Positions 30,701 to 33,700 of a stretch of DNA of 64,000 nt are shown here, piece by piece. This DNA comes from an archaeon (GTDB lineage Archaea > Nanobdellota > Nanobdellia > Pacearchaeales > GW2011-AR1). Positions within the stretch are counted from its first letter, which is position 1. Each line of letters starts with the position of its first letter. The stretch is from positions 12,700 through 76,699 of the forward strand of contig DAOVXQ010000005.1 in assembly GCA_030636025.1 (NCBI GenBank). Direction: 5' to 3'. The notes beneath the pieces were generated by a model, which saw only the letters and a program-made list of their open reading frames with translations, was not told the origin of the DNA and did not search any database. The position numbers and the translations under genes are program-made.

Positions 30701-33700
30701 CTGTCGCCGAAGCATTAAACACAACATCATTTGTATTCCAGTTTGAATCATTATTCGGACTATTAACTGTTAAAGTTGGTGCAGTAACTTCACTAACATT
30801 CAAAGTCATTGGATTCAAACTACTCGCCTCTAAAATCGGGCTGTAAAAATCATATGTCCCGACATCAAACTTGAACTCAGGCAAAATATGCGTCGCATCA
30901 GTCCCAATTGTCAAATTAACCTCATCACTCCCTGAACCATCAAACAAACTATAATCCGAATACGCCCACTTCGCCCGCCCCGATGTATAAAGCTGTTTTA
31001 TCTCATCCTCACTTAATGACCTATTAAATATCATTACCTCGTCGATTGAACCGTTGAACGGTCTGTAAGTTCCATCCCAGCCCCCAATTCTTACACTGTT
31101 AGTGCTTGTCGCAAAACCCCCAATTGTGATGGTACTATTAACAAGAATTCCATCAACATATAAAACTAAATTATCGGGCTCCCATGTTCCTACAACGTGG
31201 TGCCAGTTTCCATCATGATAATTTTCATCATGCGCAATAATAAAAGAAGTTCCACTTGAATTATGTATAATTAAACTAAATTTTCCATAGCTGTCAGCAT
31301 GTAAAATATAAGCACGATTAGAACCCGAGCCACCAAATTCATTTTTAGTGATAATATAAGCATTAGAACCCAAACCAGTATTTGTGTATTTCAACCATAC
31401 TAATAGAGTCATGCCATCAGTGAGATTCAAACTCTCATCATTCCCAACATCAACCCAATCACCATCCCCATCAAAATCCCCACCCCGACTATAAACCCCA
31501 TTAGCATTTGAAATATCTCTATCCCCGCCCCCCGAAGCATTTGAATAAACCGTCCCATTATTACTATTCCCAGACCAAACACCCTCGACATCTCCCTTTC
31601 TCACCAAAACAATATCATTCCCCACATCAACATCGTAAATCTTCCCCGAATAATTCTCCCGAGTTATACTCTTAACCCTCACTTCATCATTCTCTGAATT
31701 GCCTTCCTCAGAAGGTACTTGCCGAGGCGTCAAGAAATAAACATCATCCCCATTTTCAAACCGAGAGTAAGTTTCTGTAACCTGCTCTAAAGAGAAATCA
31801 GATAAATCTTTTGAATCAAAAGATTTAAATAGTGCATTACCTGTATTATGTGTATTAAATACATTAAACAAATCCAATAAAATGCCAACACTAACATTAT
31901 CTGTTCCAGAAGAATTAAAGAAAACAATGGATGAATTACAAATCATAAATTGGTCAGCTGTAGCCAGACAAGCGATAGAACGAAAAGCATCACAATTAAA
32001 AGTATTACAAGAATTTACCAAAGACAGCGACTTCACCGAAGAAGACGCATTAGAATTAGGAAGAAAACTAAACAAAGAGTTATCTAAAAAATTTAAGGCA
32101 TCCTCGGAGCAATAAATGCAACTTGTTGTAGATGCCAACATTTTATTTTCCGCACTAATTAAAAATTCAAAAACAGCAGAGTTATTTCTTTCAGACAAAC
32201 TCGAACTAATCGCACCAGAATTTTTATTAATAGAATTCGAAAAATATAAATCACTAATATTATCAAAAACACATCGTTCTGAGCAAGAACTTTCTAATGT
32301 GCTTTTAATTTTCAAAAATAAGCTATCATTAATATCCAAACCCGAAATAGAATCGTTTCTCAAACAATCTGATTCAATTTGCCCAGACCCCGACGACATA
32401 CAATATTTAGCCACAGCACTCAAATTTAACTGCTCAATCTGGTCCAACGATAAACACTTCAAAGAACAATCTGAAATTGAAGTATTCACAACAGCAGACC
32501 TAATTGAACTATTCGAGCTTGAAGAATAAACCCTATGCTCCTCGCTAACAACCAACTCCCTGCCATCATCCAAAACAATCTTATACATCTCACCAAAATT
32601 ATCAAAAACCTGTCTCTCCGACGGCAACTGCCACTCCCCCTCACCTGTCTCATCATTCAAAGTCATAACTCTCTCATCATCTTTCAAATCAGCAAACAAC
32701 TTCCACTCTTCTTTATAGCATTTTTTATTCTTATCATCAACAGAAAAACTTAAATAATCCTCATTCTCATTATTATCTGTCAAAATGGCAGAGCTAATTA
32801 ATCCTAAACAAAAGTTTGACTCTGAATTCTTAGTTAAAGCCGTAGTTAAATTAATGAAACAAAATATTTCTGAAAGATTTTCTAAAACCAGTACTTTATC
32901 TGAGGGAGACCAAGAATTCTGCGACAAGATTGATTGGTATCCTATTGATGAATTAGAACTAAAAGAATCTTTTGTTAGGGAGTTAAAAGAAATTGAAAAA
33001 GGACCGCACTCTGAAATGACTTTAGACGAATTAGACAAATTATCAGGATTAAAATGACTTTCAAATTCGAGCTTTCTGATAAATTGAGGAACACTATCAA
33101 TAAAATCTCGAGAAAAGACAAAAATCTCTCCATTATTATAAATAAAAAAATCAGACAGATTATTTCCTGTGATGAAACTGCTATTCAACATTTCAAAAAT
33201 CTCAGGCATGGATTGAGTGACTACAAAAGAGTCCAAATTGGAAGTTTTGTCCTCATATTCAAAGTTAAAAGAGATAAAATCATCTTTGAAAACTTTGTTC
33301 ATCACGACCAAGCCTACTAAATCTTCTTTCTCTTCTTCATCTTCTTCACAATATTCAACACCTGCTTGCAGGTTCTCGCCTGCGTTGCAGGTTCTCGCTT
33401 GTGACCTGTGGGTTATGCCCTTTAGGGTATGCCCTGAAAGGGTATAATCCCATTCATCACCACAATCAACTTCAACCAAACTCAAAATCTCTGTCTCATT
33501 ATCATAACAATGCCCTGAAAAATCCTCTAAAGTTGAACCATTACTTAAATTGCTTTCATCAAAATGCCAGTATCCTACCAAGCTATCTTCTCCGACAAAA
33601 TCACTTTCATTATAGCCCAAAGAAACATCCCAATAACCTGCCCTTGCACTCAAATTGCTCCCCTCATTAGATTGATATGTCGCACTCAACTCAATATTAT

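Follow-up and report, generated by a model that had tools for sequence, protein, structure and literature searches.

The stretch of DNA analyzed here, referred to as the window, comprises 64,000 nucleotides (nt) of an archaeal contig (DAOVXQ010000005.1, positions 12,700 to 76,699, from GenBank assembly GCA_030636025.1; GTDB lineage Archaea; Nanobdellota; Nanobdellia; Pacearchaeales; GW2011-AR1). Its minus strand carries a giant open reading frame (ORF) for a LamG-repeat surface protein, hereafter the host protein, which stays open through two inteins, and on the opposite strand of both inteins lie cassettes of predicted toxin-antitoxin (TA) genes (Table 1). Genes for PolD subunits and Cdc6 elsewhere in the window, together with the names of homologs, point to an archaeon of the DPANN type. 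The gene of main concern is a small RelE-like ORF in intein 1, for which a reading made from the letters of the window, the sequence-only reading, had proposed that selection keeps the antisense host frame free of stop codons. From the comparisons described below, the probability is about 0.85 that a real RelE/YafQ-type toxin gene and its antitoxin lie antisense within a spliced intein and that stop codons in the host frame have been purged from them by selection.

The predicted host protein has an N-terminal hydrophobic signal or transmembrane segment and a C-terminal transmembrane anchor, and seven stretches of it matched Pfam Laminin_G_3 (E value, 7.7e-165). Both inteins occupy the same position of paralogous LamG repeats. 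Excision of intein 1 gives DFSGH/SNNGTV (the slash marks the junction), compared with DFSKEDNDGTV in an uninterrupted paralogous repeat, and excision of intein 2 gives VVDYMH/SNNGSVEG, compared with VVDYMGRNNGSVEG in an uninterrupted one, so that the repeat sequence is restored in each case. The inteins start with the nucleophile Cys1 (CYDNET and CYDDET), contain the block B motif S-x-E-H (SPEH and SEEH) and a block F reading GKIYDVDV.ND, and end in Asn followed by a +1 Ser (...WSGN/S). Among eight aligned inteins, Cys1, the Ser, Glu, and His of block B, and the terminal Asn with its +1 Ser were invariant (8/8). The mini-intein of intein 2 matched NCBIfam intein_Nterm with an E value of 4.5e-5 (24.4 bits against a cut-off of 24.5), and the splicing regions of intein 1 were 70% identical to it. 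When a profile of eight mini-inteins was compared with the PDB, the top three matches were all solved inteins (AceL NrdHF, 1.6e-5; MJ0781, 7.6e-5; PI-PkoII, 5.8e-4). No intein match and no endonuclease domain were listed in a Pfam scan of the whole host protein. In the host frame, the centers of the inteins translate into a Ser/Asn/Leu-rich filler, which is the antisense of the plus-strand genes. A split intein or a fractured gene was ruled out by the continuous host frame.

Table 1. Features of the window and of related loci. L numbers denote related loci, for which coordinates are those of the locus; percentages for repeats are identities.
Feature	Coordinates	Strand	Description
Host gene	24741..37328	-	4195-aa LamG-repeat surface protein with two inteins; frame open through both
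Intein 1	31566..33509	-	648 amino acids (aa); Cys1 at 33507-33509 (CYDNETEILS...), end ...GVWSGN at 31566-31568; +1 Ser; two antisense TA cassettes
Intein 2	28386..29717	-	444 aa; CYDDETKILT...GVWSGN, then +1 Ser; three-gene antisense cassette
RelE/YafQ-type toxin gene (predicted)	33054..33320	+	88 aa; codon-exact antisense to host; 0 TTA/CTA/TCA
Antitoxin of RelE-like toxin (predicted)	32785..33057	+	90 aa; stop overlaps toxin start by 4 nt (ATGA); one base out of host phase
PIN_2 (VapC-like) toxin gene	32116..32529	+	137 aa; endonuclease slot of intein 1; Pfam PIN_2 5.1e-27
VapB-like antitoxin gene	31882..32115	+	77 aa; NCBIfam TA_anti_VapB_Sulfo 1.5e-6; 40% identical to intein 2 counterpart
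Intein 2 cassette	28723..29505	+	Ribbon-helix-helix (RHH) gene 28723..28866 (47 aa), VapB-like 28867..29100 (77 aa), PIN_2 29101..29505 (134 aa)
Candidate promoter AAAAACTTAAATAA, B recognition element (BRE)/TATA-like	32744..32757	+	28 nt upstream of antitoxin ATG; inferred from sequence
Palindrome TAAATCTTTTGA-a-TCAAAAGATTTA, perfect 12+12 nt	31803..31831		Includes BRE/TATA-like AAAGATTTAAATA at 31819-31831; host frame FKSFDSKDL
Palindrome TAAATCTTTTGAACCAAAAGATTTA plus AAAGATTTATAAG	28647..28675		47 nt upstream of RHH start; host frame YKSFGSKDL; motif family of 31803..31831
GC-rich two-hairpin element	33360..33455	+	Directly 3' of toxin gene; translated in host frame
L001 repeats	2000-2124/3046-3170; 3406-3474/4343-4411		125 nt at 98%; 69 nt at 88%
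L010 repeat	429-523/1550-1644		95 nt at 84%
L078 repeat	171-232/1316-1377		62 nt at 77%
L046 repeat	2446-2481/3347-3382		36 nt at 83%
L083 repeat	2556-2580/3330-3354		25 nt at 88%
tRNA-like inserts	L116 4411-4494, 4847-4931, 6601-6684, 7885-7970; L120 778-862; L092 4687-4770; L096 1017-1104; L080 1951-2034	host strand	ARAGORN

The RelE-like protein matched TIGR00053, the YafQ family, over residues 3 to 88 (positions 2 to 91 of the 92 in the model; E value, 7.8e-12), with 45.7 bits against a curated cut-off of 87.25, and matched PF05016 with an E value of 0.011, below the curated cut-off. A protein search gave 62 homologs of 82 to 100 aa, some of which carry PF05016 or PF15738 or a RelE name. 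On these matches, membership of the RelE/ParE superfamily is likely, at a level below the equivalog cut-off. An antitoxin gene upstream of the toxin gene, on the same strand and overlapping its start, is an arrangement that recurs in homologous loci, where the genes upstream of the RelE homologs are homologous to the antitoxin gene, encode 95 to 101 aa, and in some cases have weak RHH_12 matches. In the second cassette of intein 1, the PIN_2 gene scored 95.2 bits against a gathering score of 22.4 and is preceded by the VapB-like gene. The PIN_2 copies of inteins 1 and 2 are only 42% identical, yet both are stop free in the host phase, and the open state is therefore old. Candidate acidic catalytic residues (D6, a conserved E, DPDD, and N/E-D), as read from the alignment, are present in both copies. 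A palindrome precedes the PIN cassettes of both inteins (31803-31827 in intein 1, with its counterpart at 28647-28671 in intein 2), and this motif is probably a BRE/TATA promoter combined with an antitoxin operator for the cassette.

ORF 33054..33320 runs from ATG to TAA over 88 sense codons. Leu is encoded six times (CTT, TTG, CTC, CTC, TTG, and CTC), as is Ser (TCT, TCG, TCC, TCC, AGT, and AGT); TTA, CTA, and TCA, the complements of the three stop codons, do not occur. As 33054 mod 3 = 0 and the codons of the host ORF lie on coordinates 0, 1, and 2 mod 3, the same triplets are read on both strands, and each toxin codon is the exact reverse complement of a host codon. The sequence-only reading had given this codon list and this phase relation; re-listing of the gene returned identical codons, and the phase arithmetic agreed. 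It had also described neighboring genes as using TTA and TCA freely, which holds for relE at 2840 (TCA is its codon 7, and TTA follows) and for the PIN_2 gene at 32116..32529, which has 21 TTA, CTA, or TCA codons in its own frame and 0 stops in the host phase. The ATGA overlap with the antitoxin forces the toxin gene into the phase in which its own TTA, CTA, and TCA codons are hazards. The other embedded genes are shifted by one base, so that TTA is harmless and the hazards lie instead at the codon junctions NNY-TAY and NNT-CAN.

This difference in phase provides a control within the window. In the six other embedded genes, which are on the same strand of the same inteins with an offset of one base, TTA, CTA, or TCA accounted for 91 of 140 Leu/Ser codons, compared with 0 of 12 in the RelE-like gene (Fisher p = 8.6e-6). 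All 11 Leu codons of the antitoxin gene 32785..33057 are TTA or CTA, yet it places 0 stops in the host frame. For all seven embedded genes, the antisense phase that corresponds to the host frame had 0 stops, while each other phase had 4 to 30, and the host frame is open across ∼480 antisense-coded codons in intein 1 and ∼260 in intein 2.

The codon background was taken from the window, which has 32% G+C; in the 12,880 codons of its 47 other ORFs, TTA and CTA make up 52% of Leu codons and TCA makes up 22% of Ser codons. From these values, the probability that six Leu and six Ser codons would all be safe is 0.0027; redrawing the codons from the background with the protein held fixed gave an expectation of 4.4 host-frame stops and P(0) = 0.0027. 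The sequence-only reading had regarded the lack of these triplets in 12 codons as unusual, and it is so against the background (P ∼0.003) as well as against the neighboring embedded genes. Across six genes, the joint codon-shuffle probability was ∼1.5e-6 (the product of the single values). However, 3.5 to 4.9% of 88-codon windows of the background ORFs also had no TTA, CTA, or TCA, and the gene at 33054..33320, taken alone, is significant and not overwhelming. Antisense-open runs of 190 codons (52647-53219, plus strand, opposite the PolD large subunit gene) and 215 codons (56188-56835, plus strand, opposite cdc6) arise by chance in this genome, so that a single open antisense frame is weak evidence here. 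The decisive evidence is comparative and phase specific.

For the comparison, metagenomes were scanned with a 12-sequence RelE alignment, which yielded 80 loci and 66 distinct homolog genes. Counts of TTA, CTA, and TCA were bimodal: 43 of the 66 homologs had none, with the exact-antisense frame open over 137 to 2079 codons, and the rest mostly had 3 to 8. On a neighbor-joining tree, the clade with stops comprised 20 free-standing genes with 116 such codons in 1815 (6.4%; 3 to 8 per gene), in which TTA and CTA accounted for 44% of Leu codons and TCA for 18% of Ser codons. The 43 genes without stops, here called the zero clade, had none in 3835 codons and encoded Leu by CTT, CTC, TTG, or CTG and Ser by TCT, TCC, or AGY. 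The long antisense ORFs were giant surface proteins with the same intein, whose motifs flank the cassette (CYDNETEILT..GWK.F..PEHKVY upstream and DFSL..ITEVY..YFLD..GKIYDVDV..WSGN/S downstream).

Within the zero clade, omega was ∼0.07 to 0.27 in the toxin frame and ∼0.6 to 2.2 in the host frame, and amino acid identity was greater in the toxin frame than in the host frame in 97% of 898 pairs. The toxin is thus the constrained product, with the host frame merely kept open. All 43 zero-clade ORFs were intact, and 15 residues were invariant across 45 homologs. By parsimony on the tree, the third base of CTN-Leu and TCN-Ser codons had changed independently at least 83 times in the zero clade, a count that takes in cassettes without a recognizable intein too; all changes were among T, C, and G, and none was to A [(3/4)^83 = 4e-11]. 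The pattern can therefore be explained neither by shared ancestry nor by recent insertion. Homologs of the PIN gene behaved in the same way, with 44 of 45 across all loci being stop free in one and the same antisense phase. The single exception was free standing: locus L030 (2006-3279, on a 173-kb contig) carries an array of two cassettes, VapB-PIN and antitoxin-RelE, is nested in the zero clade, and has regained antisense stops, three in the RelE gene and two in the PIN gene. This locus is a natural example of relaxed constraint.

As judged from these substitution patterns, the gene at 33054..33320 is a real gene under purifying selection, and both frames of the dual-strand region are evidently held open by selection. 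The sequence-only reading had drawn the latter conclusion from codon bias, and the phase control, the homolog clades, and the 83 changes without one to A bear it out. Its further expectation, that homologs outside inteins would not share the avoidance, held for the free-standing clade of 20 (116 of 1815 codons) and failed for the closest homologs, including ∼29 cassettes without a recognizable intein. The avoidance, being common to the closest homologs, is thus a heritable property of the cassette lineage rather than a local adaptation of one gene. That a toxin might avoid its own cleavage sites was rejected as an explanation, since the triplets that are lacking are stop codon complements and their avoidance tracks the host phase in unrelated families.

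The intein family was surveyed by scanning species-representative genomes with the mini-intein profile. This gave 309 relatives, mostly from Woesearchaeota, Nanoarchaeota, and Pacearchaeota and also from Altiarchaeota, Aenigmarchaeota, and further groups. Cargo was then listed for 38 complete inteins of 250 to 800 aa from DPANN and other archaeal assemblies, and 37 of these contained antisense TA cassettes, drawn from four TA families: VapB with PIN_2 (n = 22), RHH/antitoxin with RelE (n = 10), DUF433 with DUF5615 (n = 4), and DUF2283 with a barnase/RelE-like nuclease (n = 1). The remaining one, a 325-aa intein (L139, 4001-4975), has a sense-coded LAGLIDADG-type domain in the cassette slot and no antisense ORF. 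Loops of the Hint domain accommodate the cassettes, most of which sit in the slot that this LAGLIDADG-type endonuclease occupies. Cargo-free joins of the N and C halves were found in L089, L090, and L092, and the splicing halves of the window inteins are 55 to 70% identical to the cargo-free relatives L089-L092. The motif AAAGATTTA(A/T)ATA, with up to 3 mismatches allowed, was present in 34 of the 38 inteins whatever their cargo, mostly ∼200 nt from the intein 3' end and 20 to 50 nt upstream of the first cassette gene. This palindromic BRE/TATA-like motif lies at the junction with the intein C-terminal domain and was absent from the three cargo-free junctions that were read (L089, L090, and L092). 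On this census, antisense TA cassettes are a family-wide architecture of these inteins.

The position of the insertions varies. The extra loop in block A that holds the RelE cassette of intein 1 (window positions 33330-33480 and 32700-32760) is also present in the L053 intein, there without cargo, and the corresponding loop in the second intein of L116 (host-frame start, 6272) holds a tRNA-like insert. The block A loop is a second insertion hot spot beside the endonuclease slot. The cassettes of L064 and L090 are located elsewhere, between blocks F and G.

A mechanism can be proposed for the maintenance of the open frame. Two real sets of genes share this DNA. For splicing, the intein has to be translated end to end, and any plus-strand triplet read as TAA, TAG, or TGA in the host frame would therefore truncate the host protein. 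Selection removes the plus-strand triplets that close the frame over the 648 and 444 intein codons, and the host-frame peptide across a cassette evolves almost neutrally, its sole requirement being that it contains no stop. The cassettes would be transcribed from the conserved palindromic motif, and the intein would still splice and remove the filler peptide, so that an insert may be tolerated in the intein although hardly any other site of a compact genome would allow it. The antisense orientation would be workable because the stop codons of the cassette genes do no harm when read from the other strand. The intein may in this way offer the cassette a place in coding DNA from which the insert leaves the mature protein; the TA pair, for its part, may penalize loss of the intein, may be copied along by recombination with the splicing halves serving as homology arms, or both. 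A wider proposal, to which we would give slightly less than an even chance, is that of an addictive intein: the homing endonuclease would have been swapped for antisense TA operons with a built-in palindromic promoter, the intein would persist by post-segregational killing and not by homing, it would serve as a general platform for cargo (tRNA-like inserts being found in relatives), and the TA lineage would have evolved ORF transparency, having no stop in one antisense frame and hence being able to reside in translated sequence.

Several points weigh against a toxin-antitoxin pair kept stop free by the translation of a splicing intein. The penultimate intein residue is Gly (WSGN) in place of the block G His. 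A penultimate His is absent from some active inteins, and Gly is thus atypical and not disqualifying. An AlphaFold2 model of the mini-intein from a two-row alignment had a mean pLDDT of 45, too low for a fold search. The RelE cassette of intein 1 sits in its extra N-terminal loop within the block A hairpin (LVEVDC...KKCYK), where it could impair splicing. Either the toxin or the intein served as the query that yielded the loci, and proportions such as 43 of 66 are not unbiased frequencies. Finally, in ∼29 of the 43 zero-stop RelE cassettes no intein of this family was found in the locus, so that embedding alone does not account for every case.

These last cassettes favor an alternative in which the open frame is intrinsic to the cassette, which would be a mobile, ORF-transparent unit, or whose antisense ORF would itself be translated; the intein would then be one of several landing places. 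In the non-intein cassettes, the frame was open from the 3' end of the toxin gene to just past the promoter motif and closed beyond it, and several were bracketed by diverged direct repeats of 25 to 125 nt (77 to 98% identical) that duplicate flanking host sequence. In L010, an ATG-started ORF of 374 aa (519..1643, minus strand) runs antisense through the whole cassette and has a 90-aa N terminus that is not cassette derived. On the host strand of L044 (3277-3837) and L079 (3235-3357), the RelE cassette directly follows the DUF1016/YhcG-like sequence LSWSHY(R/K)LL in the same open frame, which hints at insertion into another host gene family, and the cassette of L074 continues straight from surface-protein-like sequence. 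The inclusion of non-intein copies in the parsimony count also speaks for this account. However, the host-frame omega values indicate that the antisense product is not a conserved protein, and neither cassette of the free-standing L030 has kept its frame open. Every long open frame was that of an intein-bearing surface protein, and within inteins the same slot and promoter recur with four unrelated TA families, which points to the intein as their common selective setting. The non-intein copies may be short-lived and descend from a source population resident in inteins. We consider an origin of the open frame in the cassette itself unlikely, although it carries real weight, and in part it complements selection within the intein rather than excluding it.

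It is very improbable that the giant ORF does not yield one polypeptide, with dead inteins or a relic gene in which the open frame is left over. The penultimate Gly and the large insert in the block A hairpin would fit such decay, as would the near absence of called proteins with the intein, of which only four matched the mini-intein in a collection of 5.8 billion proteins. Against this, the frame is still open in dozens of lineages and in two PIN cassettes that are by now only 42% identical, all eight aligned inteins share the catalytic Cys1, block B His, terminal Asn, and +1 Ser, and the C-terminal membrane anchor of the host has been kept downstream of both inteins. Strongly disfavored is the converse idea, that the embedded TA genes are decaying relics and that selection acts on the host frame only. 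The scores of the RelE-like protein below the curated cut-offs of TIGR00053 and PF05016 could be read that way, but the 43 intact ORFs with their 15 invariant residues, the low omega of the toxin frame, the candidate catalytic residues in both PIN copies, and the conservation of the start-stop overlap and of the promoter/palindrome are not those of decaying genes. Chance or an artifact of codon bias, for which the 3.5 to 4.9% of stop-free windows and the chance runs of 190 and 215 codons might be cited, is practically negligible and is refuted by the bimodal homolog counts that track clades, the phase-specific avoidance in seven genes over ∼480 and ∼260 codons, the PIN homologs, the 83 changes without A, and the joint shuffle probability for six genes.

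Canonical inteins carry an in-frame endonuclease, and mini-inteins carry no cargo. The inteins of the window resemble canonical ones (PI-PkoII and PI-SceI, with LAGLIDADG endonucleases) in holding selfish cargo between Hint splicing halves with the host frame unbroken. In canonical inteins, however, the endonuclease is fused in frame, whereas here the cargo consists of two or three separate antisense genes that apparently have a promoter of their own and would encode TA pairs (RNases), and the in-frame peptide would be unconstrained filler. Mini-inteins likewise have no in-frame endonuclease domain, but their linkers are short, whereas the window inteins reach 444 and 648 aa through antisense-coded inserts. 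The ShiLan insert is comparable as a mobile insert that has no host-frame stop and encodes its own protein in another frame; there, the hidden endonuclease gene is on the same strand and the insert has no splicing domains, whereas here antisense TA operons lie in an intein and there is comparative evidence for selection. In 2009, Dassa et al. reportedly described fractured genes, in which a free-standing endonuclease gene separates the halves of a split intein. They share with the present case an independent gene between intein halves, but the host is physically split into two ORFs, whereas here its frame runs uninterrupted through the cargo.

Type II TA modules act as addiction or stabilization modules of plasmids, superintegron cassettes, and integrative and conjugative elements. 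The embedded pairs resemble them in having a small upstream antitoxin overlapping a RelE- or PIN-type toxin and a palindromic promoter region, and in being tied to a selfish element that can be lost. We know of no report of TA modules that lie within an intein or that overlap, over their full length, a translated frame of the opposite strand, and within the library searched, a full-text literature search returned no TA genes inside or antisense to inteins; a Thiomargarita paper among the returns proved unrelated. The parts come from known families (intein, RelE/YafQ, PIN_2/VapB, and LamG), and their arrangement matches no described type that was found. Long antisense overlapping genes in prokaryotes, for example those of Pseudomonas, are confined to single lineages and debated (PMC8850804). 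Like the present locus, they have hundreds of codons readable on both strands; here, however, one frame encodes conserved families and the other is only stop free, and the pattern, for which there is a clear reason, is found repeatedly across dozens of lineages.

If the interpretation is right, the locus would be the clearest case so far of both strands being kept readable by selection over hundreds of prokaryotic codons, with natural controls in the form of phase, free-living relatives, and a relaxed copy. The locus shows that inteins carry cargo other than homing endonucleases, which suggests a second way in which inteins persist and a new niche for TA modules in the very compact DPANN genomes. 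There is also a consequence for annotation, since gene callers cannot call both strands and will miss either the giant host protein or the TA genes. The toxin embedded in the window was not among the called proteins in the protein search, and gene callers seem to mishandle dual-strand loci.

A conventional free-standing antitoxin and RelE pair lies elsewhere in the window (2515-3091, plus strand) and is unrelated in sequence to the embedded pair; of the 83 codons of its RelE gene, six are TTA, CTA, or TCA, and none of the three antisense phases is free of stops. Directly 3' of the embedded toxin gene, the GC-rich element at 33360..33455 folds with a minimum free energy of -52.6 kcal/mol (z = -7.7) and contains the direct repeat TTGCAGGTTCTCGC twice. 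It is not present in the homologous, otherwise near-identical N-terminal loop of the L053 intein and may act as a terminator or insulator or else represent a small insertion in its own right. An Rfam scan of positions 28000-34000 gave nothing meaningful (sR18, E = 0.6) and no match for this element. No target-site duplication was found in the window, and alignment of intein 1 with the L053 loop indicated a clean insertion without duplication; a 12-nt repeat at 32645/33491 was considered as such a duplication and rejected, as it merely reflects a shared N-D-E-T coding motif.

No tRNA genes were found in the window. Inside related inteins, ARAGORN identified tRNA-like sequences of 84 to 88 nt (Ile-GAT, Leu-CAA, and Phe-GAA; Table 1) on the host strand and in frame, which suggests that these inteins may also carry RNA-gene-like cargo. 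In the host frame, the inserts read '..VAEWLLQ..GSIPTPGV'.

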